From Candidatus Ghiorseimicrobium undicola (GTDB lineage Bacteria > Omnitrophota > Gorgyraeia > Ghiorseimicrobiales > Ghiorseimicrobiaceae), in NCBI GenBank assembly GCA_002796125.1, contig PCWA01000109.1, positions 65,347-129,346 of the forward strand: a DNA stretch of 64,000 nt. The letters are read 5' to 3'. The position numbers were made by a program, and so were the translations under genes. The number at the start of each line of letters is the position of its first letter. Within the stretch, counting starts at the first letter, position 1. The notes beneath the pieces are model-generated. The model was given only the letters and a program-made list of their open reading frames with translations, was not told the origin of the DNA and ran no database searches. Shown here piece after piece: positions 5,217 through 63,585 of this stretch.

Positions 5217-5256
5217 TCCTCAATGAGCCCTGACCATGTCAGGGTGAATTGATCAC
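5217..5256 (-). repeat. Family-1 intergenic hairpin element, copy A, between rplJ and rplL
   Basis: Plus strand reads cctcAATGAGC-ccctgaccatgtcaggg-tgAATTGATC. The RNA orientation is AAUUC-hairpin-GCUCAUUGAGGAGG immediately before the rplL AUG. Confidence 0.6.
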
Positions 5257-5258
5257 TA

Positions 5259-5801
5259 TCAGCTTTTGCTCTTTTTATCCTTTATGGCATTTATGGCGTA
5301 TATCGGCTTCCTTAATACACCATTTAATATATAAACCATGTTATTCAGCGGCGCTTTAATACAGTAAACAAACTTTGCCCGTAATTGATCCTTGCTGGGT
5401 AAATTCACCAGATTACCCAAATCCTGGCCTTTTACAAGGCGCTTCTCCAGGATACCGCCCTGAAATTCTAACGCCGCATGCGCCTTAGCAAAGTCAGAAA
5501 TCGCTTTGCATATTAAAATAGGATCATCATAGCCAAAGATAAACGCCGTTTGACCCTGGAGTATGTCAACCAGTTCTTTTAAATCGCTATCCTTTAGAAT
5601 ACGGCTGGAAAGAGAATTTTTTACTACAAAAAACCTGCTCTTGGTTTGAGAAAGATTATTCCTTAATTCCGTCAACTCGCTTGCCTTTAGGCCGGAAAAT
5701 TTTACCACAAACACGCTACTAATGTCATTGAGCCTTTTTTTAAACTCGCTTTCAACCGTTTTTTTATAAATTGTGCCGATTTTTTGCATGATTTTAACCA
5801 A
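5259..5801 (-). CDS. rplJ: 50S ribosomal protein L10
   Basis: 180-aa L10 family protein in the conserved rplJ-rplL order. Confidence 0.93.
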
Positions 5802-5809
5802 CGCTTAAG

Positions 5810-6505
5810 CTATGCTTCTATTTTTATCCCGATTCCCATAGTCGTGGAAATAGAAACGCTCTTTACAAATTTACCTTTTACCGAAGCCGGCTTAGCCGCT
5901 AAAACAGTATCTATAAATTTAGACGCATTATCATAAAGCTTATTTTCATCAAAAGAAATTTTACCCACTGAACAATGGATGCCGGATTGTTTATCCACCT
6001 TAAACTCCACTTTCCCTGCTTTTATTTCTTTTATCGCTTGGGCAATATTATTTGTGACCGTACCCGTCTTAGGAGAAGGCATAAGCCCTCGCGGCCCCAA
6101 AACCTTCCCCAGCCGGCTTACATCTTTCATGATATCGGGAGTAGCAACAGCTACATCAAAATCCATCCATCCTCCAAGAACCTTGTCTATCAACTCTTGA
6201 GAGCCGAAAAAATCCGCTCCCGCTTGGCGCGCTTCCTTTTCTGCCTCACCCTTGCAAAATACGGCAATACGCACTTTTTTACCTACGCCATGAGGCAATA
6301 TCACGGTACCGCGAACCATCTGGTCGGATTTCTTTGGATCAATATTTAAATTAAACGCCACATCAACCGACTCATTAAATTTCGCAGGCGGCACTTTCTT
6401 TAAAATGCCGACAGCCTCTTTAAGGGTGTAATATTTGTCTAAATCGGTTAATTTTAATGCTTCTTTAAATCTTTTGCTATGTTTATTCATGATCCGCTTA
6501 ATCAA
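5810..6505 (-). CDS. rplA: 50S ribosomal protein L1
   Basis: 231-aa L1 family protein. Confidence 0.95.
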
Positions 6506-6926
6506 TTACCTCTATGCCCATACTTTTAGCTGTTCCTTCTATGGTCTTAACCGCTTCATCTAAATTTAACGTACTTAAATCGCTCATCTTTTGTTTGGCT
6601 ATTTCTTCAACCTGAGCCCGCTTTATTTGAGCAATTTTCTCCTTGCCCGCCTGGCCCGAAGCTTTTGCCAGATTGCACGCGCGCTTCAAAAGAATCGACG
6701 AAGGCGGGGTCTTGATAATGAAATCAAAGCTCCTGTCTTCATATACGCTAATTACTACCGGAAGTATTAAGCCCTCCCTGCCTTTTGTTTTTTCATTAAA
6801 GTCCTTGCAGAACTGCATAATATTCACTCCATGCTGGCCAAGGGCCGGGCCCACAGGAGGAGCAGGATTAGCCTGCCCTGCTGGTACATGTAACTTTATC
6901 TGTGCTTTGATGTTTTTCTTAGCCAT
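6498..6926 (-). CDS. rplK: 50S ribosomal protein L11
   Basis: 142 aa starting [35 protein letters not shown]. Confidence 0.95.
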
Positions 6927-6972
6927 AGTTCAGATGTCAGATATTAGATGGCAGTTTATCCACCATCTGTTA

Positions 6973-7500
6973 TCAAACTTTTTCTACTTGCCAAAACTCA
7001 AGCTCTACCGGGGTAGATCTGCCGAATATCGAAACAGAAACCTTGATCTTTCCTTTCTCCGGATAAACTTCTTCAATCGCTCCGTTAAAATTTACAAAAG
7101 GCCCGTCTGTTACGCGAACTTGCTCGCCCTTCTCAAACATAACTTTCGGACTAGGCTTAACCTGCGTTTCTTCCGCGCGCTTTAAAATATCTTCTACTTC
7201 ATGTGCCGGAAGCGGAAGCGGCTTCTTACCTACGCCGATAAAACCCGTAACCCCCGGAGTCCCTTTGATCAAAAGATATGCCTGTTCGCTTAAATCCATC
7301 TCCACTAAAAGATACCCCGGGAAAAATTTACGTTCTGAAATACGTTTTTTACCACCTCTAATTTCTGAAATCTGCTCGGTGGGTATCAGAAGACGCGTTA
7401 TAGCCTCTCCCATGCCGGCTGAAGTAATCCGGCCCTCCAGGCTTGTTTTTACTTTATCCTCTGATCCGGTTTGCGTATGTACGATATACCATTTCTTCAT
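6973..7500 (-). CDS. nusG: Transcription termination/antitermination factor NusG
   Basis: 175 aa with NGN and KOW domains, in the conserved position after secE. Confidence 0.93.
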   Translation of the reverse strand: MKKWYIVHTQTGSEDKVKTSLEGRITSAGMGEAITRLLIPTEQISEIRGGKKRISERKFFPGYLLVEMDLSEQAYLLIKGTPGVTGFIGVGKKPLPLPAHEVEDILKRAEETQVKPSPKVMFEKGEQVRVTDGPFVNFNGAIEEVYPEKGKIKVSVSIFGRSTPVELEFWQVEKV

Positions 7501-7507
7501 AACTAAT

Positions 7508-7702
7508 CTACTTGACCATTACTATCAACCAGCGCAAAATCCTCGAAAATGAAAAATCAATCAAACCTATAAAAACAGAAAGCAGGCCGGTGATAGTTAT
7601 AACCAAAAATGTCGCCGATAACAATTCTTGCCTGCTGGACCAGGAAACCTTAGTTAGCTCGGTTCTTACTTCAGCCACAAATTTTTTAATTTTAGCGACC
7701 AT
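7508..7702 (-). CDS. secE: Preprotein translocase subunit SecE
   Basis: KIKKFVAEVRTELTKVSWSSRQELL followed by a TM helix. I shortened the start to the ATG at 7702 because the longer ORF-track N-terminus would run through tRNA-Trp. Confidence 0.8.
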   Translation of the reverse strand: MVAKIKKFVAEVRTELTKVSWSSRQELLSATFLVITITGLLSVFIGLIDFSFSRILRWLIVMVK

Positions 7703-7767
7703 TATTTTATGATTGGCAGTATTTAATTTTTCCGTGACTATTGGCCTACTTATCTCTACTAACATTA

Positions 7768-7838
7768 CAGGAGCGGCAGGAGTCGAACCTGCAGTCACGG
7801 TTTTGGAGACCGTTGGTTTGCCCTTAACCGACGCTCCT
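7768..7838 (-). tRNA. tRNA-Trp, anticodon CCA
   Basis: The reverse complement folds as a cloverleaf: AGGAGCG acceptor, anticodon stem ACGGU/ACCGU with loop CUCCAAA, and T-arm GCAGG-UUCGACU-CCUGC. CCA is not encoded. It sits in the canonical rpmG-tRNATrp-secE position. Confidence 0.85.
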
Positions 7839-7881
7839 TCAAAGAAGATTTGACGTCGGGGGACATATCCGCGCTTAAAAT

Positions 7882-8031
7882 CTATTTTATCTCTTTATGC
7901 GCGGTATGCTTGCGGCAGAATCTGCAATACTTTTTTAACTCAATTCTCTCCGGATGCTTCTTTTTGTCTTTTGTGCTCGTATAATTACGGCTTTTACAAT
8001 CCAAACATTCTAGTGTGATAATTTCCCGCAT
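7882..8031 (-). CDS. rpmG: 50S ribosomal protein L33
   Basis: The 49-aa product [49 protein letters not shown] is a zinc-ribbon L33. It is below the ORF-track size cutoff. Confidence 0.85.
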
Positions 8032-8163
8032 AGCAAAATTTATCCGTTAAAAGGCCAGCATCAAAAACTGAAGCAAGCCAAGATTAAACTTGCAACGTTT
8101 GAGGTAGAATTAAAATTATAGCTTGCTCAGTTAGCTTTTTCCGTAATTTTCCGTCGGAGAAAA

Positions 8164-8235
8164 GCCCCCGATCGGAATTGAACCGATGGCCCCGTCCTTA
8201 CCAAGGACGTGCTCTGCCGACTGAGCTACGAGGGC
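8164..8235 (-). tRNA. tRNA-Thr, anticodon GGU
   Basis: The reverse complement reads GCCCUCGUAGCUCAGUCGGCAGAGCACGUCCUUGGUAAGGACG...AUCGGUUCAAUUCCGAUCGGGGGCU. It has a D-arm, an anticodon loop UUGGUAA and T-arm AUCGG/CCGAU. Confidence 0.85.
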
Positions 8236-8253
8236 AGCTTACGTAAAGCATTT

Positions 8254-8281
8254 ATTATAAATGCTTTTTAAGCTTTGTCAA
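8254..8281 (-). promoter_or_regulatory. Consensus sigma70-type promoter for the tRNAThr-rpmG-tRNATrp-secE-nusG transcription unit
   Basis: Minus-strand TTGACA (8276-8281), 16-nt spacer, TATAAT (8254-8259), about 19 nt upstream of the tRNA-Thr 5' end. The -10 lies inside the perfect palindrome AAAGCATTTAtaaTAAATGCTTT, and there is an A/T-rich UP-like tract upstream. Confidence 0.55.
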
Positions 8282-8317
8282 GTATTTTTTTTATTTTTTT
8301 GAAAAGGCAGTGCGGTT

Positions 8318-9595
8318 TTATGCAACAGTACGCGGGGAGAGCAGTTTATTAAAAATATGGCCGACTTTGCTAGAACCGCCGCCATCTTTTAACATTCCTT
8401 TCTCTGCCAACACCTCAACAAAAACATCTACCAGATCAGGATCAAACTGCTTATTTTTATTTTTAATCAATTCAGCTACCGCATCCTCTATAGAAAAAGG
8501 AGCCTTTCTATAAGGCCTGGAATGGGTCATGGCGTCGAATGAATCAACAATTGTGGCAATGCGTGCTCCCAGGGGAATCTTATATCCTTTTAGGCCTTCC
8601 GGATAACCGGAGCCGTCAAATTTTTCTTGATGGTAACGTATAATAGCCGCAACCTCTTCTAACCCGTCTATTTGTTCAAAAATTTCCGCTCCGTCTACGG
8701 GATGTTTTTTTAATATTGCCCATTCCCCTTGCGTCAAAGGGCCTTCCTTATATAAAATCTCTTTTGGCGTATACTGCTTGCCGATATCATGTAAAAATAT
8801 AGACGAAATAAATAATTCTTTGGGAATATCAGGAAACACCACTCCCCGCCTCTCTAATTTCACCACCATGCTGGCGGCCATATCAAACATTCTATCCATG
8901 TGAGGACGGGTAAAATCCGGATCGAACTTTTCTATACTCAACGACATAGCCTTTATTATTCCATAAAAGATTTTCTGGATATTTTTATACAGCTGGGCAT
9001 TACGTATCGCCATAACAGCCGTACGCGCCAGCGCCATAAAAAAATCAAGCTCTTCCTGCTGGAACCTGCTTCCATTGCTTTTCTTGCCTAAGAACAAAAT
9101 TCCCAAAAGGTTTTTTGTCTGAAAGTATCCCGGAACCAAGGCATCAACATCATAATCTTCCATTTCCGCGCGTAACTGGCCAATACAATCCCGCAAAGAA
9201 TTATTTACTGTTCCTTTCTTCAGGTATTTCAGTAAATCCTCTTTACGTATAGCCCCGCTTCTATTAATCAGATAATTTGTACGCTCAGCAAAGAATTTAA
9301 TGATGACATCATCATTTTCCATGCGGATATATTCTTTAGGGATTACCGATCCTTTTTTCCCTTTAGAGCTTGTTAAAACATATGATTTTTTGGCGTCATT
9401 ATAGAGAAGAATGCCCACATGGGTAAGCCTCACCTTTTTCACTATCATGTATACGATAAGACGGACTAAGCGTTCAATATCAAGGATTTCGACCATCCCG
9501 GCTGTCGCCAGCTCCAATGAACGTTTATATCCGCCAAATGGAAGGTTATTTTTTTTACTACGGACATTTTGTGAAGATTTTCTGGAAGGCATCAT
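8318..9595 (-). CDS. GAF domain-containing HD-GYP phosphohydrolase; likely c-di-GMP phosphodiesterase
   Basis: C-terminal HDIGK...HPVDGAEI...RYHQEKFDGSGYPEGLKG matches the HD-GYP signature. The N-terminal ~200 aa look GAF-like. The true start may be internal. Confidence 0.8.
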   Translation of the reverse strand: MMPSRKSSQNVRSKKNNLPFGGYKRSLELATAGMVEILDIERLVRLIVYMIVKKVRLTHVGILLYNDAKKSYVLTSSKGKKGSVIPKEYIRMENDDVIIKFFAERTNYLINRSGAIRKEDLLKYLKKGTVNNSLRDCIGQLRAEMEDYDVDALVPGYFQTKNLLGILFLGKKSNGSRFQQEELDFFMALARTAVMAIRNAQLYKNIQKIFYGIIKAMSLSIEKFDPDFTRPHMDRMFDMAASMVVKLERRGVVFPDIPKELFISSIFLHDIGKQYTPKEILYKEGPLTQGEWAILKKHPVDGAEIFEQIDGLEEVAAIIRYHQEKFDGSGYPEGLKGYKIPLGARIATIVDSFDAMTHSRPYRKAPFSIEDAVAELIKNKNKQFDPDLVDVFVEVLAEKGMLKDGGGSSKVGHIFNKLLSPRTVA

Positions 9596-9607
9596 AAACC
9601 CTAATAA

Positions 9608-9991
9608 TTATATTTTACTATTTATTTCATCGGCAAATTTAACCACCAAATTATCAAGGTCTTTTAATAAAATCGGCTTGGTAAGATAACTCGAAACTCC
9701 CAGTGTTTTTAAATATTCAATTTGTTCATTATTATCCAGGGCACTGACGATTATTACCTTTGGGTTAGGGCATATTTTCTTTATCCTTTTAAAGGTTTCG
9801 ATGCCATTGATGCCCTGCATCATTATATCTAAAATAACTATATCGGGCCTTTCTTTTTCAAAAATAACCAGCGCCTCTTCTCCAGAAAGGGCAAAAAGCA
9901 CATCAAAGCCCTTCTTTTTAAATCTCTGCTCGACATAATTACATATTAACTCTTCGTCATCAACAACCAATAGCTTTATCTTCTCAGGCAC
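9608..9991 (-). CDS. Single-domain response regulator (receiver only, CheY-like)
   Basis: 127 aa with LLVVDDE and ILDIMMQGINGIE and no output domain. Confidence 0.8.
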   Translation of the reverse strand: MPEKIKLLVVDDEELICNYVEQRFKKKGFDVLFALSGEEALVIFEKERPDIVILDIMMQGINGIETFKRIKKICPNPKVIIVSALDNNEQIEYLKTLGVSSYLTKPILLKDLDNLVVKFADEINSKI

Positions 9992-10018
9992 TAACAGCCC
10001 CTTTCTTATATGTAACTA

Positions 10019-10402: not shown

Positions 10403-10468
10403 TTAACACCCCCTTAAAATAACCTGTAAAATCCATAAATTATCAAAATATTTTATGCCTACGTGCTT

Positions 10469-10496
10469 ATTATATAAGGTATATAAATAAAATCAA
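10469..10496 (-). promoter_or_regulatory. Candidate promoter for the two-receiver/HD-GYP cluster
   Basis: Minus-strand TTGATT (10491-10496), 16 nt, TATAAT (10469-10474), about 65 nt upstream of the first response regulator's AUG. Confidence 0.4.
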
Positions 10497-10497
10497 G

Positions 10498-12265: not shown

Positions 12266-12281
12266 TTCAAAAAGTTTGCGC

Positions 12282-22304: not shown

Positions 22305-22310
22305 TTTACC

Positions 22311-22425
22311 CCGTTAGAGATAGGCCGCCGAAGGCGGCCGTCTCTCCAAGCTAATTATACCGATAAACTTGTGCTTCCTTAATTATCAAATCCCCATTAA
22401 TTTAGTGAATCGCTATCTCTAACGG
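22311..22425 (-). promoter_or_regulatory. Structured hisB-hisH spacer: 13-bp inverted repeat CCGTTAGAGATAG/CTATCTCTAACGG enclosing a GGCCGCC-UUCG-GGCGGCC hairpin
   Basis: The arms are at 22311-22323 and 22413-22425. The 3' arm on the RNA overlaps the local UUCG hairpin, so the two folds compete. The element spans from the hisB stop to the hisH GTG. Confidence 0.5.
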
Positions 22426-22427
22426 TG

Positions 22428-23044: not shown

Positions 23045-23072
23045 ACAATTAATGAACACTTGCGTAATTGCC
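23045..23072 (-). repeat. Family-1 element, degenerate stem-less copy B', just upstream of hisB
   Basis: caATTAATGAACacttgcgtAATTGccc keeps both flanks without the internal hairpin. Confidence 0.35.
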
Positions 23073-23176: not shown

Positions 23177-23217
23177 CAATGAGCACATCCGCCGTAGGCG
23201 AAAAAGCGCGAATTGAC
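23177..23217 (-). repeat. Family-1 intergenic hairpin element, copy B, just after the hisD stop
   Basis: cAATGAGCacatccgccgtaggcgaaaaagcgcGAATTGAc. Confidence 0.55.
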
Positions 23218-29084: not shown

Positions 29085-29153
29085 CTAGCACCTCCTTAAA
29101 CTTAACATCTGCCATCCAGCATTAAGTGCGGCTTCCGCACCTTTTAACTTTTA

Positions 29154-29234
29154 CTTTACCAATGGCATTAAGGTAGTTAATATTTCGCTTATGTTTCCGG
29201 AATCTTTACCATTAGTTGTACAAAGCTCAATAAG
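29154..29234 (-). repeat. R2 repeat, copy 1, beginning 13 nt after the recA stop
   Basis: About 85% identical over 82 nt to 36440-36521, and the last 29 nt TTACCATTAGTTGTACAAAGCTCAATAAG are identical. Confidence 0.6.
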
Positions 29235-29246
29235 CCGCCCGGCATT

Positions 29247-34800: not shown

Positions 34801-35059
34801 CGTTGGAAAATGTGAGGGATACTTCCGCGAGGTTTAACGGCGGCTTGTTTTCCGTGCCGTTAAAAATAACGTCTTCCATCTTCGAGCCGCGCAAAGATTT
34901 TATTGACTGCTCTCCTAAAACCCAACGGATACTGTCAAAGATATTACTTTTTCCGCACCCATTCGGCCCGACGATGGCGGTAATGCCCGGTTCAAAAATA
35001 AGCGTGGTTTTATCGGCGAAAGATTTAAAACCTATTATTTCCAGTTTTTTAAAGTACAT
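31814..35059 (-). CDS. smc: Chromosome partition protein Smc
   Basis: Walker A GPNGCGKSN, long coiled coils, a hinge, and the C-terminal LSGGEKS...DEIDAALD. I prefer the second in-frame ATG at 35059 (MYFKKLEIIGFKSF); the first ATG at 35071 lies inside the repeat. Confidence 0.9.
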   Translation of the reverse strand: MYFKKLEIIGFKSFADKTTLIFEPGITAIVGPNGCGKSNIFDSIRWVLGEQSIKSLRGSKMEDVIFNGTENKPPLNLAEVSLTFSNESKFLPTDYDEVTITRRIFRSGESEYLLNKTVVRLKDIIDLIAGTGIGAESYSLVEQGKIDLVLSSRPEDRRLVFDEAAGVTKYKSKKKEALRRLEDTENNLLRVSDIIAEVKRQISSLDRQANKARRYKEEFDKLKDLDIKFSKRQILELDNEISDYLVKIESLKKEEIDNNTKLSDLDSQIHQLRKRTQEIEAEINRVKTEEYALISLVDKNTEFIKMNQERILELNSRTDSLKEQEIGLQARLKENQEKVDMLSEELSGLSKNFQDKDLDLKEKEKNLEALIAEIKNAHNNISQSKLDILSIAQKQALLNNDLSDIGMRISNITSRKKRLIIEKEKIDQEKSSLDEQVLVLKAEFDELNTKISILRQDEARHKESLDNTEESIRLLEETAQNLENQRVSLESQLEFLEQLKLKYEDISEVFDGILIVDKLPQGELSGILSKVKEIRQIDSGKYQITCELKPIPLDTQKIKEKINKIGEELSSFRSKIGVEKQSLSAIKSGLINIGDNIHQEEISLNAKKTNLQALEQQLEKICQEAGVIALEYDESNADLDSSNLKYSELKMEGVNLENKRNESESLITGLQEKIAKNNEVKEEMTVAIARCGAEINSLDDRKTALFNSLKLMQGALSNDQSSLERISQEIQTSFIRSGELAKESQNLNNQVVKAGLDKQGVAEELDILRKRFEEAAEEEMQKDQALSLVRNELDRIKNGIHQLSMQDKDIEFKKSTIKERLSQSYRINLDELPLVDEDFDRQKVSEEIGELRAKIEKMGTVNLVAIEEYDELKQRFEFLTSQQNDLISAKESLKEAINKINKTTKQLFLETFAKVGEQFKIYFRLLFGGGEAQLMLIDENDVLESGIEIIARPPGKKLQNVMLLSGGEKSLSAIALIFAVFKIKPSPFCVLDEIDAALDESNVDRFNRLLQEFIETSQFLVITHNKKTITAADVMYGITMQERGVSKIISAKLKERNSSKEEVITQPEEEAPEAEAPAEAK

Positions 35060-35176
35060 TAATGAGCGCATAACTTGCGGAGGCGAAGCCGACGTAAGTT
35101 ATAGGCGCGAATTAATCCCGAAGCCTACGCAATAAATTTCGAAGAAATTTACGAGTGTTTAGGCGAGGGATAACGG
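35060..35176 (-). repeat. Composite intergenic element I: long-stem family-1 element (35060-35119) plus a hairpin U module ending AGGCGAGGGATAAC
   Basis: ttAATGAGCgcataacttgcgg...ccgacgtaagttataggcgcGAATTAATc followed by aataaatttcgaagaaatttac. Confidence 0.55.
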
Positions 35177-35205: not shown

Positions 35206-36408
35206 CTACCTATTTAAAACCTCTTTAAATTTTTTCGTTAATAAAGGCACTGCTTCAAATACATCCGCGACAATACCATAAGTTGCCACGCTGAATATGG
35301 GTGCCTGCGGATCACTGTTTATAGCTATTATTATATCAGAAGATTGCATTCCTACCAAGTGTTGAATTTGCCCGGAAATTCCACAAGCTATATAAACTTT
35401 AGGGCAAACTGTTTTCCCGGTCTGCCCAACCTGATGAGAATAAGGCATCCAACCAGAATCAACCGCGGCACGCGAGGCACCAACGGCAGCCCCTAAAACC
35501 CTGGCTAATTCTTCAAGTAAGGCGAAATTTTTTGCCTCCTTTAGACCGCGGCCCCCGGACACTACAATATCAGCCTCCGTCAAGTTAACCGTAGCCGATA
35601 CCTCTTCTGCTATGTCCAGTATTTTTGTGCGCGAACTAAATTCCTCGGCTTCAAATGCTTCCTTGATGATTTTTCCCTTCCTTGTTTTATCTGTGCGCGC
35701 TTCCTTCATTACCTTATGCCTTACAGTCGCCATCTGGGGACGGAAATTCGGTGAAATTATTGTTGCCATAATATTGCCACCGAAAGCAGGCCGCGTCTGA
35801 AGCAGTATTTTCTTTTTTGCGTCAATATCCAAACCGGTACAATCAGCTGTCAGGCCGGTATAAAGCTTGACAGCGACCCTGGAAATAAGCGAACGCCCTA
35901 TGGAGGTAGCCCCGCATAGCACTATCTCCGGCTTATACTTTTCAATTAACTTAATAAGGATGTGGGAAAACGGCTCATCCAAATAATTGGCCAGATTCTC
36001 ATCATCCACCAAATAAATATTATCAGCCCCCCTGTATATCAATTCATCGCTACACTTTAATACATCATGCCCCAATAAAACACAGGATAAATCTACCCCC
36101 AGCTTATCGGCCAGCTCTCTGCCCTTACCTAACAATTCATAAACTACACTTTGCACAACAGCCTTTTTCTGTTCGGCAAACACCCAAACTCCCTTGTATT
36201 CCCCTAAATCCTTTGTTTCTTCTATCACTTGCGGCCTTGCTATCTCTATGGCATCAAATTTGCACACAGTTTTACAAGCGCCGCATAGATTACACTGATT
36301 AAAATCTACTATGGCAAGCTTATTTTCTACGCGCATTGCCCCGAAAGGACACGCGTTTACGCAAAGCGTGCACCCCTTACAGTTATCTTTCAATATTTTT
36401 ATGCTCAT
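35206..36408 (-). CDS. etfA: Electron transfer flavoprotein alpha subunit with an N-terminal 2x[4Fe-4S] ferredoxin domain
   Basis: CKGCTLCVNACP and CNLCGACKTVC, followed by the ETF-alpha FAD-binding domain. Confidence 0.88.
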   Translation of the reverse strand: MSIKILKDNCKGCTLCVNACPFGAMRVENKLAIVDFNQCNLCGACKTVCKFDAIEIARPQVIEETKDLGEYKGVWVFAEQKKAVVQSVVYELLGKGRELADKLGVDLSCVLLGHDVLKCSDELIYRGADNIYLVDDENLANYLDEPFSHILIKLIEKYKPEIVLCGATSIGRSLISRVAVKLYTGLTADCTGLDIDAKKKILLQTRPAFGGNIMATIISPNFRPQMATVRHKVMKEARTDKTRKGKIIKEAFEAEEFSSRTKILDIAEEVSATVNLTEADIVVSGGRGLKEAKNFALLEELARVLGAAVGASRAAVDSGWMPYSHQVGQTGKTVCPKVYIACGISGQIQHLVGMQSSDIIIAINSDPQAPIFSVATYGIVADVFEAVPLLTKKFKEVLNR

Positions 36409-36439
36409 TTAATTTAACTCCCAATCTTATTGACTCTTG

Positions 36440-36521
36440 CTTTACCACTGGCATCAAGGTAGTCAATATTCCGTTTATGTTTTGCGGAATTTTTACCATT
36501 AGTTGTACAAAGCTCAATAAG
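36440..36521 (-). repeat. R2 repeat, copy 2, beginning 10 nt after the etfB stop and inside the etfB-etfA spacer
   Basis: Homologous to 29154-29234 (copy 1). Confidence 0.6.
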
Positions 36522-36531
36522 ATTTCAGTTT

Positions 36532-40103: not shown

Positions 40104-40145
40104 CAATGAGCACATCCGCCCAAGGCGAGATAGTGCGAATTAATT
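40104..40145 (-). repeat. Family-1 intergenic hairpin element, copy C
   Basis: cAATGAGCacatccgcccaaggcgagatagtgcGAATTAATTcc. Confidence 0.6.
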
Positions 40146-40600: not shown

Positions 40601-40657
40601 TTAATGAGCCCACAACTTACGGAGCAAAGCGAACGTAAGTTGTATGGGCGAATTATT
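40601..40657 (-). repeat. Family-1 element, long-stem copy F, overlapping the glgC stop codon
   Basis: ttAATGAGCccacaacttacggagcaaagcgaacgtaagttgtatgggcGAATTATT. Confidence 0.6.
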
Positions 40658-41897: not shown

Positions 41898-41960
41898 AGT
41901 ATTATCCTCTTTCTAACCTGACTGCTTGCATATAGTTAAATAATAAATTCAGAATAATTG

Positions 41961-41975
41961 CCTATCTCTAACGGG
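41961..41975 (+). promoter_or_regulatory. Third copy of the motif CCTATCTCTAACGGG, in the glgC upstream region
   Basis: Same 13-14-mer as the arms in the hisB-hisH spacer. On the minus strand it follows a TATAAT hexamer. Confidence 0.3.
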
Positions 41976-41992
41976 CTTCATTATACTCAAAC

Positions 41993-43752: not shown

Positions 43753-43966
43753 CTAATGAGCCCACAACTTACGGAGGCAAAGCCGACGTAAGTTGTATGG
43801 GCGAATTATTCCGATGGCTGCAAGTAGATTTCGCAGAAATCTACGCAGTGTTTAGCCATCGGGAAATGAGCGCATCCGCCTACGGCGAAATCTGCGCGAA
43901 TTATCCCGAAGCCTATCGGGGAAATCTCGAAGAGATTTACCCGATGCTTAGGCGAGGGGAATGAGC
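43753..43966 (-). repeat. Composite intergenic mosaic G inside the opp operon, between oppC and oppD
   Basis: Four parts in order. First a long-stem family-1 element (43753-43810). Then a 9-bp-stem hairpin CCGATGGCT...AGCCATCGG (43811-43862). Then a short-stem family-1 element (43863-43906). Then a hairpin U module ending GGCGAGGGGAATGAGCC at the oppC stop. Confidence 0.6.
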
Positions 43967-46006: not shown

Positions 46007-46118
46007 AATTGGCAATGTAAAATTAAAAATACAGAATTTAAAATCATAATTAAAAATTTAAAAATGAATTAAAACTTTTAATTTACAATTATAATTTTTC
46101 AATTTTCATTTTTAACTT
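46007..46118. other. About 90% A+T spacer between oppA and oppB with imperfect dyad symmetry
   Basis: aattaaaaatttaaaaatgaattaaaacttttaatttacaattataatttttcaattttcatttttaactttt. Confidence 0.4.
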
Positions 46119-48256: not shown

Positions 48257-48443
48257 CAATGAGCACATCCGCCTACGGCGAGATAAGTGCGAATTGATCT
48301 CCTTGCTTAAACAAGGGGTAAATTCTCTTCGAGAATTTCCCCCTTAAGCTTCGGAGTAGGTTAGAACTTATTAAGCTTAAACCTACCCGCAGCCTATCGG
48401 GGAAATTTCGAAGAAATTTACCCGATGCTTAGGCAAGGGATAA
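48257..48443 (-). repeat. Composite mosaic D downstream of tpiA: family-1 element, U1 hairpin, central hairpin, U2 hairpin
   Basis: Positions 48289-48395 are 105/107 identical to 49254-49360. U1 is GGGGTAAATTCTCTTCGAGAATTTCCCC, the central hairpin is GGAGTAGGTT...AACCTACCC, and U2 is ATCGGGGAAATTTCGAAGAAATTTACCCGAT. Confidence 0.7.
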
Positions 48444-49202
48444 TTATTCTATTGATTTTTTTATTATTTCAGAAAATGATTCTAGTTTTAAACTGGCCCC
48501 TCCTACCAGGGCGCCATCTATATCCTCTTGCTCCATTAGCTCTCTTATATTATCAGGCTTAACCGATCCTCCGTACTGTATACGCGCCTTATCAGACAAT
48601 TCTCTATCATAAAGTTCTGCCAATTTCTGCCTAATAAAATAATGGACTTCCTGAGCCTGCTGCGGCGTTGCGGTCTTTCCTGTGCCAATAGCCCACACCG
48701 GCTCATACGCAATAACCATTTTTTCTACATCCTCTTTTTCCAAACCCAAAAGGCCAAGTTTTATATGCTCTTCCACAACATTAAACGTTTTGGCCGATTC
48801 CCGTTCTGATAAATTTTCCCCCACGCACATAATCGGTATCAAGCCCTCTTTCAATACGGCTTTTACTCTTTTATTAACAGTTTCATTGGTTTCTCCGAAA
48901 AACTGCCTTCTTTCGGAATGCCCTATTATAACATATTTTACGCCTAATTCTTTTAGCTGCAGGAGAGAAACTTCTCCGGTAAAAGCCCCCTCCAATTCCC
49001 AGTGGGCATTTTGGGCGCCTAAAGCAATATCGCAATCCGAAATAGCATCAGCTACTTCATCTAAAAGCGTAAAACTCGGGACTATCACAATGTCCGCCGC
49101 TTTAAAGCCGTAAAACTCACGCTTTAGACCGTTAGCAAGCTCAAGCGCCTGCGCTATTGTCTTATACATTTTCCAATTTCCCGCGATAATAGGTTTTCTC
49201 AT
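48444..49202 (-). CDS. tpiA: Triosephosphate isomerase
   Basis: 252 aa, AGNWKM...IGHSERR... Confidence 0.95.
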   Translation of the reverse strand: MRKPIIAGNWKMYKTIAQALELANGLKREFYGFKAADIVIVPSFTLLDEVADAISDCDIALGAQNAHWELEGAFTGEVSLLQLKELGVKYVIIGHSERRQFFGETNETVNKRVKAVLKEGLIPIMCVGENLSERESAKTFNVVEEHIKLGLLGLEKEDVEKMVIAYEPVWAIGTGKTATPQQAQEVHYFIRQKLAELYDRELSDKARIQYGGSVKPDNIRELMEQEDIDGALVGGASLKLESFSEIIKKSIE

Positions 49203-49203
49203 G

Positions 49204-49463
49204 TTAATGAGCGCGTAACTTACGGAGTTCGAAGAACGACGTAAGTTATCTGCGCGAATTAATCTCCTTGCTTAAACAAGGGGTAAATTCTCTTCGAGAA
49301 TTTCCCCCTTAAGCTTCGGAGTAGGTTAGAACTTATTAAGCTTAAACCTACCCACAGCCTGCCCACAAGGGCGGGCCATCCTAATACCTTTAAAGGATGG
49401 GCCCTATCGGGTAAATATCGTAGAGATTTACCCGATGTTTAGGCGAGGGATAATGGCCATATT
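49204..49463 (-). repeat. Composite mosaic H upstream of tpiA: long-stem family-1 element, U1, central hairpin, a GC-rich hairpin, U2
   Basis: It contains the same 107-bp block as mosaic D, plus an extra GGGCCATCC...GGATGGGCCC hairpin (49361-49404). Confidence 0.7.
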
Positions 49464-55722: not shown

Positions 55723-55740
55723 AACGGATTGGATTAAGGA

Positions 55741-58700: not shown

Positions 58701-58959
58701 AAACAGCATCAGGGCGTTCTTTTATAATAATCTTTTCCAAGACTTCCGGAGTTATCGGCTCAATATAGGTGGCATCAGCTATCTCAGGATCGGTCATAAT
58801 AGTCGCGGGATTGGAATTGACAAGGATAACTTTAAAGCCTTCCTCCTTGAGCGCCTTACAGGCCTGGGTGCCCGAATAATCAAATTCACAGGCCTGGCCG
58901 ATGATAATCGGGCCTGAGCCGATGATTAGGATTTTATGTATATCCGTGCGTTTAGGCAT
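55741..58959 (-). CDS. carB: Carbamoyl-phosphate synthase large subunit
   Basis: 1072 aa with duplicated ATP-grasp halves and an MGS-like C-terminal domain. Confidence 0.95.
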
Positions 58960-59005
58960 TTTAATAATTAAAAGTTAAAAAATGAAAAATTTATTTTTTT
59001 AGCGA

Positions 59006-59626
59006 TTACTGCCCCCGCAGGCTTTTCTTTAGCCGCCTGCCCATATCAACTAAAAGTCTTATATCAGCCTCTGTTTCCATAGTAAAAGCAGGTATAAAAT
59101 AAATAATTGCGGCATCCTCATAAATAAGACACTGCAGAAGATGAGGAAGGCTGGCGTTTATTAACTGCGGTAAAATACTTAAAATTTTATCTTCTTGGGG
59201 AATTCCTGAACGGTAGCGGACTTTGATCCCTCCATCCTTTTCTATGTGAAATAACATTTTCACATCAGGCAACCCTTCAAATATCACTGCCGAACGTTGA
59301 GTTGTTGTTGCGGCACGGCTACTATAGGAAGTTTTTGCTGTTTCAACGACATTGCAAAGAATAACTTCTCCATCGGTAAAAATATTCCTATATCCGCCAA
59401 AAGATAATCTTCCCGGCCCAGCCGGAATAAAATTAATATCTTTGAGTAACTTCTCTAGATTTACCCTTCCGGAAACCCCCGGGCTTAATCCATATGTCTG
59501 CGCGACGGACAAAACCGACAACTCCATCTTTTTATTGCCGCGTACAATTGCGATAAAAATAGCTGCGATCAGCGCAAACAACAAGCCAGAAAAAACAAGA
59601 AACGGCACCATTGGAAATTTTTCCAT
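59006..59626 (-). CDS. Hypothetical membrane-anchored protein inserted between carA and carB
   Basis: One N-terminal TM helix, then a ~170-aa soluble domain with no recognisable motifs. Confidence 0.5.
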   Translation of the reverse strand: MEKFPMVPFLVFSGLLFALIAAIFIAIVRGNKKMELSVLSVAQTYGLSPGVSGRVNLEKLLKDINFIPAGPGRLSFGGYRNIFTDGEVILCNVVETAKTSYSSRAATTTQRSAVIFEGLPDVKMLFHIEKDGGIKVRYRSGIPQEDKILSILPQLINASLPHLLQCLIYEDAAIIYFIPAFTMETEADIRLLVDMGRRLKKSLRGQ

Positions 59627-59636
59627 TATATTGTTC

Positions 59637-60737
59637 CTATCGCTTATAATTTTTCACCAAATCTATAAACTCATCGAAAAGGTACTGCGCGTCATGCGGG
59701 CCGGGGCCGTATTCCGGATGAAACTGCACCGAGAATAGAGGATATTTCTTATGGCGTATACCTTCCAAAGTATTATCATTCAAATTTATATGGGTTATTT
59801 CAATATCATTTTTTTTAAGCGTATCTATATCAACGCAAAAGCCGTGATTCTGGACGGTAATTGATATCCTGCCTGTCCTTAAATCCTTTACCGGATGATT
59901 CCCCCCGTGGTGGCCGAATTTCAACTTATAGGTTTTGCCTCCGAGGGCAAGGCCAAGCATCTGATTGCCCAGGCATATGCCGAATATGGGGATTTTTCCG
60001 ATAAGTTTTTTCAAGCTGCTTACCACATAGGTAACGGCGGCGGGATCTCCCGGCCCGTTTGATAAAAGCAGGCCGTGCGGCTTAAGCTTTAATATTTCAT
60101 CTGCCGAAGCATCAGCCGGCAAAACTACCACCTTGCAATTTCTCTCTTCCAATCTTCGCAATATATTAAATTTTACCCCACAGTCTAAAACCGCGACCTT
60201 ATATCTGCCCTTCGCGTTCCACTCAAATGGCTTATCATATATGACTTCCTTAACCAAATCTACTCCATCAAGGCCGCGCGATGCTTTAGCCTTTTTAACC
60301 AAGCTTTTTATATCCAAATCTTCGGTTGAAATAACCGCCTTCATCGCGCCCTTAAGCCTTATATGTTTGGTGAGCGCCCTCGTATCAATTCCCTCAATTC
60401 CCAAAATATTGTTTTCGCCTAAATAATCACTAAGTGTTTTTTGAGAACGCCAGTTGCTGGCAATGGGGCTATTTTCTTTAACGATAAATCCGGATAAGAA
60501 TATCTTTCGCGATTCCACATCATCAATATTTATACCGTAATTACCTATCAAGGGATAAGTCATGCAAACAATCTGGCCGCAATATGAAGGATCAGTCAAA
60601 ATCTCCTGGTATCCTGATAGGGAAGTATTAAAAACAACCTCGCCAAAAGACTCACCATCAGCCCCAAAAGAAAAGCCCTCAAAGACACGGCCGTCCTCAA
60701 GGGCTAATATTGCTTTTTTATGATTAATATTCGGCAT
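59637..60737 (-). CDS. carA: Carbamoyl-phosphate synthase small subunit
   Basis: Class-I glutamine amidotransferase. I prefer the ATG at 60737; the track begins at a GTG at 60743. Confidence 0.92.
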   Translation of the reverse strand: MPNINHKKAILALEDGRVFEGFSFGADGESFGEVVFNTSLSGYQEILTDPSYCGQIVCMTYPLIGNYGINIDDVESRKIFLSGFIVKENSPIASNWRSQKTLSDYLGENNILGIEGIDTRALTKHIRLKGAMKAVISTEDLDIKSLVKKAKASRGLDGVDLVKEVIYDKPFEWNAKGRYKVAVLDCGVKFNILRRLEERNCKVVVLPADASADEILKLKPHGLLLSNGPGDPAAVTYVVSSLKKLIGKIPIFGICLGNQMLGLALGGKTYKLKFGHHGGNHPVKDLRTGRISITVQNHGFCVDIDTLKKNDIEITHINLNDNTLEGIRHKKYPLFSVQFHPEYGPGPHDAQYLFDEFIDLVKNYKR

Positions 60738-60744
60738 TTTCACT

Positions 60745-60784
60745 TAGAAAAAAGGCGTTCCCCTTGTTTTTCTGGCAGAACGCC
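60745..60784 (-). terminator. Intrinsic-terminator-like hairpin (GGCGUUC...GAACGCC plus U6) 8 nt upstream of the carA AUG; a candidate attenuator
   Basis: On the minus-strand RNA the stem is 60784-60778 paired with 60760-60754, followed by UUUUUUCUA. A promoter lies about 45 nt upstream of the hairpin. Confidence 0.55.
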
Positions 60785-60834
60785 ATGCTTAAGAACCAAA
60801 AATTATCCTGCACACACCGCATAAATTGACATTA

Positions 60835-60863
60835 ATTATCCAACATTTTCACCGAATAGTCAA
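60835..60863 (-). promoter_or_regulatory. Candidate carA leader promoter
   Basis: Minus-strand TTGACT (60858-60863), 17 nt, GATAAT (60835-60840). Confidence 0.4.
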
Positions 60864-60882
60864 GGATTATATTTGCTTAATG

Positions 60883-62418
60883 TTACAATGTCCAGAGGTT
60901 GCGGTCAAGGCAGCGGTAGCTGATTGCCTCAGATATGTGCTCGCTTTTGATTGTTTCTGAGGCGGATAAATCAGCGATAGTGCGCGAAATTTTAAGAATC
61001 TTATGATATGCGCGCGCGCTCAAACCCAGGTTTAAAATAGCCATTTTTAATAGTTCCTTGGCGTCTTCCGTTAATATGCATACTTTTTCGGTCGTAGGCG
61101 CGTTCATGTGCGCGTTATAGCAATATCCAAATTCTTTTAGTTTTTTCTCCTGAATCTGCCGGGCTTTATTTACTCTTTCTCTTATTTCCAAGGACGTTTC
61201 CGCCTTGTTTTTTAAGGCCATCTGTTCATACTTTAGGCGGGGAACCTCTAAGTGAATATCAATTCTATCCAACAGCGGCCCGGAAATCTTAGAAAGATAC
61301 CGCTGTATCTGATGAGGGCTGCAATGGCATTGCCGGGAATCGTCTAAAAAAAACCCGCAGGGACAGGGATTACAGGCAGAAATAAGAATAAAACGCGCCG
61401 GAAAACTTACCGTGGAGGCAATCCTGGAAACCGTAATATAACCTGCCTCTAACGGCTGTCTTAGCGCCTCAAGCACATTGCGCCTGAATTCAGGCAATTC
61501 ATCTAAAAAAAGCACGCCGTTATGGCTTAGACTGATCTCACCAGGTTTAGGATGAGTACCGCCGCCGATTAAGGCCACATCGCTGATAGAATGATGCGGC
61601 GCGCGAAAAGGCCTGTCTGAAATAACAGTCCGGCCGTTTGAAATAAGACCGGCCACGCTATGGATTTTAGTTGTTTCTAAAGCTTCCTGGATAGTCGCCT
61701 GCGGCAGGATACCGGGCATGCACTTAGCCAGCATAGTTTTCCCCGCTCCGGGAGAACCGATAAGCAAAAGATTATGCCCGCCCGCGGCTGCTACCTCTAA
61801 CCCTCTTTTGATATGCTGCTGCCCCTTAACATCAGCAAAATCAAACTCGTAACTTCCCTTGCCCTGCCAGAGGTTTTCCGTATCTACTTTTGTATTCTTA
61901 ATTTCAAGATCATTATTAAGATAAGCTGCGGCTTGACCAAGATTTTCTAACGCCAGGACTTCTATATCACCGACCACGGCTGCCTCTTTAGCATTTTCGG
62001 ACGGGAGTAGTAATTGCCTGTAATATGAGTTTCGCAAAGCCATAGCCCTTGGCAAAACGCCGGTAATCGGTTTTAAGCTTCCATCAAGAGAAAGCTCGCC
62101 ACAAAATACTTTACCGTTTAACGCCTCTTTATTTATCTGTCCGGTAGCAGCCAATACGCCTAAAGCAACCGGCAGGTCAAAACAAGGGCCTTCTTTTTTG
62201 ATATCGGCAGGAGCTAAATTTACCGTAATCTTCCTCCGGGGGAAGCTGAAACCACAGTTCTTAATCGCAGCCTTAACCCTATTAATGCTTTCGCGCACTA
62301 CCGCATCAGGCAGTCCTACGATAGAAAAACCGGGCAGCCCGCCTGACACATCCACCTCTACGGCAACCTTTATCGCCTCTATTCCTAAAACAGTGCTTGA
62401 AATGACTTTGGCCAACAT
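60883..62418 (-). CDS. comM: Mg-chelatase-like AAA+ ATPase ComM/YifB
   Basis: YifB family protein. I prefer the ATG at 62418 (MLAKVISSTVLGIEA) with a GGAGGGG RBS; the track's TTG start at 62460 adds an unlikely N-terminus. Confidence 0.85.
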   Translation of the reverse strand: MLAKVISSTVLGIEAIKVAVEVDVSGGLPGFSIVGLPDAVVRESINRVKAAIKNCGFSFPRRKITVNLAPADIKKEGPCFDLPVALGVLAATGQINKEALNGKVFCGELSLDGSLKPITGVLPRAMALRNSYYRQLLLPSENAKEAAVVGDIEVLALENLGQAAAYLNNDLEIKNTKVDTENLWQGKGSYEFDFADVKGQQHIKRGLEVAAAGGHNLLLIGSPGAGKTMLAKCMPGILPQATIQEALETTKIHSVAGLISNGRTVISDRPFRAPHHSISDVALIGGGTHPKPGEISLSHNGVLFLDELPEFRRNVLEALRQPLEAGYITVSRIASTVSFPARFILISACNPCPCGFFLDDSRQCHCSPHQIQRYLSKISGPLLDRIDIHLEVPRLKYEQMALKNKAETSLEIRERVNKARQIQEKKLKEFGYCYNAHMNAPTTEKVCILTEDAKELLKMAILNLGLSARAYHKILKISRTIADLSASETIKSEHISEAISYRCLDRNLWTL

Positions 62419-62440
62419 AACACCCCTCCACGAAAAGAAA

Positions 62441-62469
62441 ATGTAGAATTTAAAATGCAAAATGCATAA
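62441..62469. repeat. 7-mer-unit repeat block (AATGTAG/AATGCAT units) flanking the four-helix-bundle gene on its 3' side
   Basis: atgtagaatttaaaatgcaaaatgcataa. It shares AATGTAGAAT and AAAATGCATAAT blocks, in inverted orientation, with 62855-62884. Confidence 0.5.
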
Positions 62470-62835
62470 TTATAACTTCGAATTTTTGATAATCCTGATC
62501 AATATGCTTATAATTTGCTGACACTCTCCGCTTAAATAAGCAAAACGCTCCGCCTCCCCCTTCATTAATGCGGCATCGCGTATTAAATTTATCCACAGTT
62601 TCGTCTCTCGAGCCTCCTTAAGAGATATATTCATTTTATAAATAAAATCTTGTTTGCTAAAGGCGCTCTGGGCCTCTTCAATATTAGCAGCTATTGATGT
62701 GGCTGACCTCAAAAATTGTTTGCCGAGTTCAAAACCAGCAGTCTCCTTGGGTAAACTCCTCACAATTCTTACAACTTCAAGGGCAAAGTTATAAGTTCTA
62801 TTATCAATATCAACTTTGCATTTTTTATCTTGCAT
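62470..62835 (-). CDS. Four-helix-bundle protein of the 23S rRNA intervening-sequence / Avd family
   Basis: LRSATSIAANIEEAQ...KEARETKLWINLI. I prefer the ATG at 62835 with an AAGGGAGG RBS. Confidence 0.75.
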   Translation of the reverse strand: MQDKKCKVDIDNRTYNFALEVVRIVRSLPKETAGFELGKQFLRSATSIAANIEEAQSAFSKQDFIYKMNISLKEARETKLWINLIRDAALMKGEAERFAYLSGECQQIISILIRIIKNSKL

Positions 62836-62854
62836 TTTGTATCCTCCCTTCAAT

Positions 62855-62884
62855 TCTACATTCTACATTATGCATTTTACATTC
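62855..62884. repeat. Tandem 7-mers CTACATT CTACATT ATGCATT TTACATT flanking the four-helix-bundle gene on its 5' side
   Basis: It directly abuts the yraN stop codon at 62885. Confidence 0.5.
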
Positions 62885-63238
62885 TTAAAACGCGTCTTTA
62901 ATCAGGGTAATCTGCGGCTTCTCTCCAAATATAATAGATACTACATCAAACCTAAAGATTTCTTCCGAATGCGCGTTCCGCTTGATATAAAATTGGGCCG
63001 CGCGAAATAAATGTTTAATTTTTTCCCGGCTGATTGCCTCTTCCGGCCAGCCAAAATCAGGCGAACTCCTGGCCTTTACTTCAATAAACACCATCTCCCT
63101 TCCCTGGCGGGCGATAATATCTATTTCGCCCACCGGAGAAGAAAAATTCCTGGCAATAATCTTGTATCCTTTTCGGCGTAAAAACCGCAAGGCAAGCTCC
63201 TCGCCTTTTGCGCCCAAGATTTGTTTGTATTTATTCAT
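62885..63238 (-). CDS. YraN family endonuclease (UPF0102)
   Basis: 117-aa PD-(D/E)xK protein of the YraN family. Confidence 0.8.
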   Translation of the reverse strand: MNKYKQILGAKGEELALRFLRRKGYKIIARNFSSPVGEIDIIARQGREMVFIEVKARSSPDFGWPEEAISREKIKHLFRAAQFYIKRNAHSEEIFRFDVVSIIFGEKPQITLIKDAF

Positions 63239-63266
63239 AATTTAGTTACTAGTTACGAGTTACGAA

Positions 63267-63527
63267 TCACTGCTCTTGATATGCCTCCAGAACCGCTTCG
63301 TTAAGCTGGCTCTTGACTTCATCACTTAAAGGAAATATAGTTGGATACCATTGACCGTTCTTCCCTTGTTCAGACGGCATGCTCACAAACAATCCGTTTT
63401 TGCCTTCCACGACACGCAGGCCCTTCACTAAAAATAAATCAGCGATGGCCACATCGGCAAAAGCTTTAAGCTTGCCGTCGCCTTCTAACTTGTGCAGGCG
63501 TTTTACCGCAATAGCTGAACCCGACAT
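63267..63527 (-). CDS. spoVG: Putative septation protein SpoVG
   Basis: KAFADVAIADLFLVKGLRVVEGKNGLFVSMPS. I prefer the ATG at 63527 with a GAGGAGG RBS. Confidence 0.8.
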   Translation of the reverse strand: MSGSAIAVKRLHKLEGDGKLKAFADVAIADLFLVKGLRVVEGKNGLFVSMPSEQGKNGQWYPTIFPLSDEVKSQLNEAVLEAYQEQ

Positions 63528-63538
63528 CTTCTTCACCT

Positions 63539-63585
63539 CCTCAATGGACACATCCGCCGCAGGCGGATAAGTGCGCGTTAATCCC
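63539..63585 (-). repeat. Family-1 intergenic hairpin element, copy E, upstream of spoVG
   Basis: ccTCAATGGACacatccgccgcaggcggataagtgcgcGTTAATccc. Confidence 0.55.

Follow-up and report, generated by a model that had tools for sequence, protein, structure and literature searches.

The stretch of DNA analysed here (the window) comprises 64 kb of Omnitrophota sequence with a G+C content of 41%, in which the minus strand carries nearly all genes and the GC skew is negative throughout. A short hairpin repeat with conserved ends, which we call feet, lies between many of these genes. Two covariance models were built from aligned copies, R1 for a long class and R2 for a short class. The searches indicated that ten copies in the window belonged to one family of hairpin repeats, with E-values of 1e-10 to 1e-16 except for a weaker copy between rplJ and rplL. 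R1 scored 72-88 bits for the four long-class copies, and R2 scored 60-69 bits for the five short-class copies (Table 1). The weaker copy, at 5217, reached about 25 bits (E about 1e-3) and carried the same feet as the others. Neither model detected further copies in the window with the filters off. The original prediction, made from the sequence alone, had listed at least 11 copies on the minus strand and had proposed building a covariance model from them. When this was done, ten of the 11 were recovered, at the coordinates and on the strand predicted. The eleventh, described as a stem-less variant at 23045-23072, was not recovered by either model with the filters off at E<=10 and is possibly a decayed relic at best.

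The core of the element can be written as (Y)AAT-TC-GCNC...GNGC-TC-ATT(R), in which the feet are fixed and the interior is variable and covarying; the copies are 29-61 nt long. In the outer helix, (T/C)AAT pairs with ATT(A/G). Next to this helix is a 2x2 loop with UC opposite UC, or GA opposite GA on the complementary strand. This mismatch had been noted before and was present in 9 of the 10 window copies and in 19 of the 20 aligned copies. Inside it lies a 4-bp helix (GCNC/GNGC), the third pair of which was seen in all four Watson-Crick forms. Other details of the predicted structure were revised. The full 12-nt flanks said to be common to all copies were found in only two of them (35060 and 49204), and the common core consists of 9 + 9 nt, AATTCGCNC...GNGCTCATT, which form the inverted repeats of the solo hairpin except at the TC/GA positions. 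The short-class interior is ATC(T)CGCC-triloop-GGCGGAT, with a triloop and not a tetraloop. The long-class interior is not a single 15-bp stem but begins with a 3x1 loop and a 9-bp helix (TAACTTACG/CGTAAGTTA); 8 of the 12 copies then have a second UC/UC loop, and a triloop closes the last helix, of 3-4 bp. The spacing from foot to foot ranges from about 11 to 50 nt.

The pairing was then evaluated from pair counts in the alignments. In the long class, 92% of the cells were paired and 13 of the 22 pairs were changed on both sides, compared with 26-46% pairing when the partners were slid; none of 500 shuffles reached the observed values. In the short class, 94% of the cells were paired and 3 of the 16 pairs were changed on both sides. 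The high pairing and the double changes relative to these controls indicated that the hairpin is real and that its pairing is under selection, in agreement with the compensatory changes originally described. A fifth outer pair covaries between C-G and T-A, and the bases flanking the copies are CA...TG or TA...TA, which are likewise complementary and covarying. This covariation suggested that the flanking bases belong to the palindrome and do not represent a target-site duplication. All three sense frames of the element are closed by stop codons, and no mini open reading frame (ORF) bridging the spacer was found.

No preference for the mRNA strand was evident in the pairing. Sense-strand wobble amounted to 15 G.U against 9 A.C, which was not significant and did not single out the mRNA strand. 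The complementary (GA/GA) strand folded about 2-2.6 kcal/mol better per copy in every group, and the energy difference between the strands was equal in co-oriented and anti-oriented phage copies; there was thus no sign that the pairing is tuned to the transcribed strand. Consensus-based prediction called no intrinsic terminator or sigma-70 promoter at any copy, and the regional totals were at shuffle level, so that a reading of the copies as promoters or terminators was rejected.

The gene contexts of the window copies were assigned using NCBIfam. As predicted, the copies lie at rplJ-rplL, hisD-hisB, etfA-smc, GNAT-acyl-CoA dehydrogenase, glgC-GNAT, oppC-oppD, tpiA-secG and pgk-tpiA and upstream of spoVG, the oppC-oppD junction holding two copies (Table 1). 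All ten match the polarity of the flanking genes. Two settings were observed at the downstream end, as had been reported. At smc, GNAT, oppD and tpiA, the starts of which are fixed by homology, the 3' foot ends 1-3 nt before the ATG and no Shine-Dalgarno (SD) sequence is present. In the other setting, the 3' foot stands directly before GAGGAGG or GAAAGGA, and the start codon follows 12-15 nt further on. The claimed distance of 2-15 nt between the 3' flank and the start codon did not hold for 23177, where the distance is 147 nt, or for 43863, where further modules follow.

The copy before tpiA bears on gene calling. The invariant residues N9 and K11 of TpiA (48444-49202) lie upstream of the publicly called start, which fixes the true start. 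The public call, of 241 aa, is 11 residues short and loses both residues, and the shortened call is attributed to the lack of an SD sequence after the hairpin. An error of the opposite kind was seen in a syntenic relative (L009), where the public call for pgk (8739-9998) runs through a copy and is 26 codons too long.

Most copies are preceded by a second hairpin, termed module A, which has the frame ATCCC...GGGAT and a nested hairpin; other modules (B, C and X) also occur. Together they form head-to-tail mosaics of hairpin modules, arranged in arrays of 134-261 nt on one strand. A 107-nt duplicate comprising modules B and C and the element foot is 98% identical between the tpiA-secG junction (48289-48395) and the pgk-tpiA junction (49254-49360). 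The short-A'-long array of the oppC-oppD junction recurs in another metagenome contig (L004) with 85% identity over 163 nt.

Table 1. Copies of the hairpin repeat and associated hairpin modules in the 64-kb window (coordinates in window numbering)
Feature	Coordinates	Strand	Context and evidence
Solo copy, inner stem CCCTGAC-ATG-GTCAGGG	5217-5256	-	Between rplJ stop and rplL; followed by GAGGAGG SD, ATG 12 nt on; 25 bits
Claimed stem-less variant	23045-23072	-	Unsupported; neither model at E<=10
Short-class copy	23177-23217	-	1 nt past hisD stop, hisB start 147 nt off; R2 63 bits
Long-class copy	35060-35119	-	A of smc start codon in closing pair (ATG at 35059), no SD; R1 84 bits
Hairpin module A, abutting the 35060 copy	35115-35171	-	ATCCC...GGGAT with nested inner hairpin; repeat family D7/D8; fold -18 kcal/mol
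Short-class copy	40104-40145	-	Between GNAT stop and acyl-CoA dehydrogenase; followed by GAGGAGG; R2 65 bits
Long-class solo copy	40601-40657	-	Whole glgC-GNAT spacer; TAA at 0 nt, ATG 2 nt past TCATT; R1 72 bits
Long-class copy	43753-43810	-	ATG of oppD 2 nt on, no SD; R1 88 bits
Hairpin module A', between the two oppC-oppD copies	43808-43864	-	Fold -25 kcal/mol
Short-class copy, oppC-oppD array	43863-43906	-	R2 60 bits
Hairpin module A, 5' end of oppC-oppD array	43903-43961	-	Repeat family D2
Short-class copy upstream of secG	48257-48299	-	Followed by GAAAGGA SD; R2 69 bits
Modules C, B, A of tpiA-secG array, head-to-tail	48299-48441	-	Repeat comparison, folding
Long-class copy	49204-49264	-	tpiA ATG (49202) 3 nt on, no SD; R1 80 bits
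Modules C, B, X, A of pgk-tpiA array	49264-49451	-	261-nt spacer; 2 nt in L009
Short-class copy, flanks AACGC.../...TCCATT	63539-63585	-	Upstream of spoVG, followed by GAGGAGG; R2 62 bits
Minimal upstream hairpin ATCCCGC...GCGGGAT before the 63539 copy	63581-63608	-	Folding

The repeat appears to be previously undescribed. At gathering thresholds, Rfam 15 assigned only two tRNAs in the window and no family to the repeat, and in E-value mode the element-rich stretches of the window and the phage loci gave only chance-level matches. A literature search by words and by sequence strings returned no description of the repeat or of repeat families in Omnitrophota. Specificity was assessed on unrelated bacterial loci (L018-L090) totalling about 1.2 Mb, where R1 and R2 gave no match at E<0.3; these controls, originally fetched for another purpose, are the non-Omnitrophota loci that made up most of the returns from a scan of genome contigs with a TpiA profile. 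That scan was swamped by universal peptides and yielded a single new copy, in a more distant Omnitrophota metagenome-assembled genome (MAG; L014). A strict short-class pattern had no match in the genome contigs and matched only four loci in the metagenome collection.

Homologues of TpiA placed the window in Candidatus Omnitrophota, and relatives were then compared at orthologous junctions. Four contigs (L005-L008) belong to the same population as the window, with 99.9-100% identity. Several of them end within the repeat arrays (window positions about 48329-49321); independent assemblies thus break inside the arrays, which indicates that the elements fragment metagenome assemblies. In four metagenome contigs of the same sample series, copies lie between genes for a TolC-like protein and HlyD, between those for HlyD and AcrB, between polA and glgA, and upstream of parA. 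The syntenic relative L009/L091 (TpiA 74% identical, about 70% nucleotide identity) carries five clear copies within the 20.7 kb of L009, one each upstream of pgk and of a Band_7 gene and one each at tpiA-secG, oppD-oppF and oppF-glgC. Junctions that are filled in the window were tight in L009: pgk and tpiA are separated by 2 nt, oppC and oppD by 6 nt, and glgC and the GNAT gene overlap by ATGA. A decayed copy was found in L091 (10269-10337) at the orthologous GNAT-acyl-CoA dehydrogenase junction. At tpiA-secG, the window, L009 and L095 all hold a copy; the feet of these three are nearly identical and their interiors unrelated. In L092, L093 and L096, the two genes are 4 nt apart. The one clear copy of L014 lies in a genome with 59% TpiA identity. 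All 13 copies in the other Omnitrophota contigs (L001, L002, L004, L009, L014 and L095) are co-oriented with the genes, and the interiors form genome-specific subfamilies. The tight junctions in relatives where the window is filled indicated that copies have been gained and lost. Taken over all relatives, copies were gained, lost, replaced and decayed while the feet stayed near-invariant. The same junctions also attract different hairpin families: at pgk-tpiA in L096 (9824-9968), the spacer is filled by unrelated hairpin repeats, with GCCAGCCAAAAACCCTGGCTGGC occurring twice around a long hairpin.

Copies were also detected in viral genomes. A general pattern scan of IMG/VR gave mostly chance matches, from which real relatives were picked out by R1. 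A sharper pattern, GGGATAATTCGC-N20-50-GCTCATT, identified at least 30 stretches of uncultivated phage contigs with 37 non-redundant copies, at up to four per 3 kb, in a set that is biased to canonical copies since the pattern fixes GGGAT and both feet. PHROGs showed these contigs to be true phages, with genes for terminase, portal, protease, scaffold, major head, sheath and tape-measure proteins, the portal belonging to the Mu gp29 type. Every phage copy is a two-hairpin unit, [ATCCC...GGGAT][AATTCGC...GCTCATT]A. The original prediction that polarity with respect to the downstream gene is constant held for the 10 window copies and the 13 others from Omnitrophota but not for the phages, in which 18 copies were co-oriented with the ORFs, 12-13 were anti-oriented, and the orientation of 6 could not be assigned. 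In the co-oriented copies, the ATG lies at +0 after TCATT in 12 cases, and an AGGAGG-type spacer of 13 nt occurs in 3. In the anti-oriented copies, the upstream gene takes its TAA stop from TAATGA, the reverse complement of the element end; the offset is 0 in 10 cases and +3 in 2. Most contigs are strand-consistent, and two phage contigs carry copies on both strands. Filled and empty junctions were again observed (98 nt in L227 vs 6 nt in L138; 94 nt in L242 vs 15 nt in L138). No element was found in GenBank phages or in three related Mu-like prophages (L245-L247, from a Deltaproteobacteria MAG and two other assemblies), and interiors of the window type were not found in viral contigs. Named portal homologues came from Deltaproteobacteria, Acidobacteriota, Victivallales and Nitrospiraceae.

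On balance, we consider that these copies are probably small, non-autonomous, mobile palindromic DNA elements that reside between co-directional genes of some Omnitrophota and of Mu-like phages, a reading held with modest confidence. It had been among the possibilities raised in advance, and the presence or absence of copies at orthologous junctions of Omnitrophota and phages, the genome-specific subfamilies and the duplicated arrays now speak for it. The two orientations in phages, the unrelated contexts and the absence of strand-specific wobble point in the same direction. The ends of the element would make insertion tolerable. In the orientation of the genes, the TCATTA end either abuts the start codon, its closing pair using the A of the ATG, or precedes GAGGAGG or AGGAGG; in the opposite orientation, its complement TAATGA serves as the stop codon of the upstream gene. 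An end compatible with starts and stops, together with stop codons in all frames, may be the cause of tolerated insertion into tight operon junctions, and the flush fit to gene boundaries would allow the element to live inside rplJ-rplL, pgk-tpiA-secG or a phage head operon. This fit may stem from the choice of target or from the loss of all but harmless insertions. Some subfamilies bring their own ribosome-binding site. Judging from the anatomy, an enzyme supplied in trans would mobilise the element by recognising its folded single strand, the conserved mismatch marking its identity. Since the copies are co-transcribed within operons, they would also be expected to shape the mRNA (stability, processing or translational coupling), as a consequence rather than as a demonstrated function.

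Several observations weigh against mobility. No enzyme that would mobilise the element, such as a transposase, was identified, and none was present among the scanned window proteins. An IS256-family (Transposase_mut) gene on the minus strand of L001 (8-1297) adjoins an efflux operon with two copies; its adjacent end is unlike the repeat, which speaks against it as the parent element. Target-site duplications were not seen at the copies, and L005-L008, which are nearly identical, showed no insertion polymorphism. The feet are near-invariant across genomes with TpiA identities of 59-76% and between bacteria and phages, and the tpiA-secG copy persists in three lineages. These two features fit purifying selection as well as, or better than, a selfish element. 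The copies abut ATG or TAA exactly and occur in compact phage late operons, upstream of capsid, portal and tape-measure genes that have no SD; the element may thus contribute positively to expression. In addition, the co-orientation of all 23 Omnitrophota copies could stem from selection at the RNA level or from a bias towards one replication strand, two causes that the data do not separate.

In a tentative alternative, the repeat is primarily a cis-acting RNA module of polycistronic mRNA, acting in translation initiation, processing or stability, and its spread by duplication is secondary. The helix would place the start codon at its end, and the 5' GGGAU or GGAGAU would act as a split SD folded next to the AUG, as in T4 gene 38. 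In another version, the hairpin would be a nuclease barrier or processing site, as in T7 RNase III sites or REP stabilisers. The geometry is consistent with such a module: the hairpin ends 1-6 nt from the start without SD in 9 Omnitrophota copies, the start lies 12-16 nt away with an SD directly past the hairpin in 10, and the starts of tpiA, smc, oppD and GNAT do not depend on gene calling. In 12 phage copies the ATG at +0 opens major structural genes, and these highly expressed genes lack an SD. The retention of the feet across deep divergence, the persistent tpiA-secG copy and the co-orientation of 23 of 23 Omnitrophota copies are also consistent with it. Of 19 Omnitrophota copies, 16 have a GGR motif 1-3 nt from the helix on its 5' side, but the motif was similarly frequent in copies with their own SD (8/10) and without (8/9), and GGGAU itself is paired within the upstream hairpin. 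About 40% of the phage copies of assigned orientation are reversed, so that the mRNA carries the GA/GA version straight after the stop codon. Moreover, the G.U and A.C counts, the equal fold-energy asymmetry in both orientations, the lack of an Rfam match and the 0-6-nt junctions with which close relatives manage do not favour an RNA module. With no evidence of pairing selected on the transcribed strand, an RNA-level function is possible, though unsupported. It is compatible with mobility, and the family may be a mobile element shaped to be expression-neutral or expression-positive.

A doubtful variant treats the repeat as a portable cassette that passes between phage and bacterial genomes and is itself a translation device; another treats it as a new kind of single-strand hairpin transposon that targets stop/start junctions. 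As a translation device, the helix would present the start codon, GGGAU or GGAG would be the split SD, and the reversed copy would end the upstream gene with TAA-TGA, so that genes could be expressed without a linear ribosome-binding site. As a transposon, the element would be recognised by its enzyme through the conserved tandem GA/UC mismatch.

It is improbable that the copies are binding sites of a sequence- and structure-specific regulator common to phages and hosts, with the feet as the recognition site. This reading is modelled on the mycobacteriophage L5 'stoperators', found in short gaps between genes. Invariant feet with a free interior, a strictly intergenic location with up to four copies per 3 kb of phage late region, and occurrence in both phage and bacterial DNA would suit such sites. 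The variable foot spacing combined with selection for pairing points to an extruded or single-stranded hairpin and not to a duplex operator; no candidate regulator was found, and housekeeping operons such as rplJ-rplL and pgk-tpiA-secG have no obvious common regulation. Integron attC-like sites for single-strand recombination between gene cassettes, which the copies superficially resemble as imperfect palindromes between ORFs with conserved ends, variable structured centres and unpaired bases, are very unlikely indeed and were rejected on ends and gene context, because AATTC...TCATT does not match the consensus RYYYAAC...GTTRRRY, the neighbours are core genes in conserved synteny and not cassettes, and no integrase was found among the proteins scanned nearby.

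We further compared the family, read as a mobile palindromic element, with known systems. The similarity to repetitive extragenic palindromic (REP) elements and bacterial interspersed mosaic elements (BIMEs) suggested in the original prediction applies to behaviour and not to membership. Like them, the repeat forms imperfect palindromes of 30-60 nt with a conserved stem mismatch, present in many intergenic copies, co-transcribed in operons and assembled into mosaic clusters. Unlike them, it has no GTAG/GTGG tetranucleotide, its 5' context being GGGAT, GGAGAT, GGAAT or a stop codon. REP clusters alternate in orientation, whereas the modules of this family run head-to-tail, and REP elements show the reverse of its conserved feet and variable interior; the flush position at start and stop codons and the occurrence in phage genomes also set it apart. 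The REP elements of Enterobacteria and Pseudomonas are mobilised by the REP-associated tyrosine transposase (RAYT), a Y1 HUH transposase. No RAYT was found among the proteins scanned, which comprised those of the window flanking genes and unannotated ORFs and of nine genes of L001, L002 and L004, the data for this organism amounting to 64 kb plus about 30 kb.

Miniature inverted-repeat transposable elements (MITEs), such as Correia of Neisseria, ERIC/IRU of Enterobacteria, and RUP and BOX of pneumococcus, are similarly non-autonomous, hairpin-forming, intergenic, patchy in relatives and transcribed with their neighbours, and the solo hairpin likewise has terminal inverted repeats. The present family is much smaller (29-61 nt) and lacks target-site duplications; the contigs covered held no insertion sequence whose ends match and which could be the parent, the IS256-family gene of L001 being the only transposase seen. 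The mycobacterial interspersed repetitive units (MIRUs) also lie between operon cistrons next to stop and start codons, with the polarity of the genes, as in the bacterial copies. MIRUs are, however, direct repeats with a bridging mini-ORF that overlaps the stop and start codons on either side, and a MIRU-like bridging ORF was rejected here because the palindromes are closed in all three frames.

A parallel in unit design is offered by palindrome-associated transposable elements (PATEs) and hairpin-ended derivatives of IS200/IS605, which share the two-hairpin units, dissimilar ends, absence of a composite terminal inverted repeat and absence of target duplication. Their imperfect hairpins are a plausible recognition feature, and most contigs here are strand-consistent. 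In contrast to PATEs, no conserved target tetra- or pentanucleotide was found 5' of the element and no TnpA was seen, and two phage contigs are both-stranded. The sequence 5' of the composite unit was inconsistent, being CATT or GTT in the bacterium and AAGGTACA in the co-oriented phage copies. Phage intercistronic RNA signals (T7 RNase III sites, the split SD of T4 gene 38 and the PeSL cassettes of T4-type phages) resemble the family in being repeated internal-loop hairpins between genes, in the position of a hairpin between an SD-like sequence and the AUG, and in the association of repeated cassettes with mosaicism. They differ in that the present repeat occurs in both orientations and is shared with a bacterial chromosome, and any cleavage or SD bridging by it is hypothetical.

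The family represents a new design of small repeat, in which the feet and a tandem mismatch are conserved and the interior is replaceable. Its elements lie flush to start and stop codons in essential operons (rplJ-rplL and pgk-tpiA-secG) and in the late operons of Mu-like phages. Omnitrophota are uncultivated, and a family present in both phage and cellular genomes could mark phage-host pairs and points to traffic of small elements between them. For annotation and assembly, the consequences are that gene starts after the element are miscalled and that assemblies break at the repeats. The family also provides a system for asking how a start codon without SD at the foot of a stable hairpin is translated.

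Several other features of the window were observed. A repeat of about 90 nt (CTTATTGAGCTTTGTACAACTAATGGTAAA...CCTTRATGCCAKTGGTAAAG), with about 90% identity, occurs on the minus strand downstream of recA (29085-29246) and just upstream of etfA (36409-36531; etfA at 35206-36408). It is not a simple hairpin and had no Rfam match at the gathering threshold. The motif CCGTTAGAGATAGG was found at or just past gene ends in two window spacers (22305-22427 and 41898-41992) and in L009 (13990-14030), and may constitute another small repeat family. Its TAG is the gene stop in L009 and lies just past the stop in both window spacers; the 22305-22427 spacer also holds a GC-rich hairpin with an inverted copy of the motif on each side. 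AT-rich tandem motifs are present at 62854-62884, 63239-63266 and 46016-46118, consisting of AATGTAGA repeats, GTAACT repeats and AAAATT/TTAAAA runs. The rpoB, oppA and carB genes start after AT-rich leaders without SD. Finally, the gene at 62470-62853, which adjoins yraN and spoVG, encodes a member of the 23S rRNA intervening-sequence protein family (PF05635).

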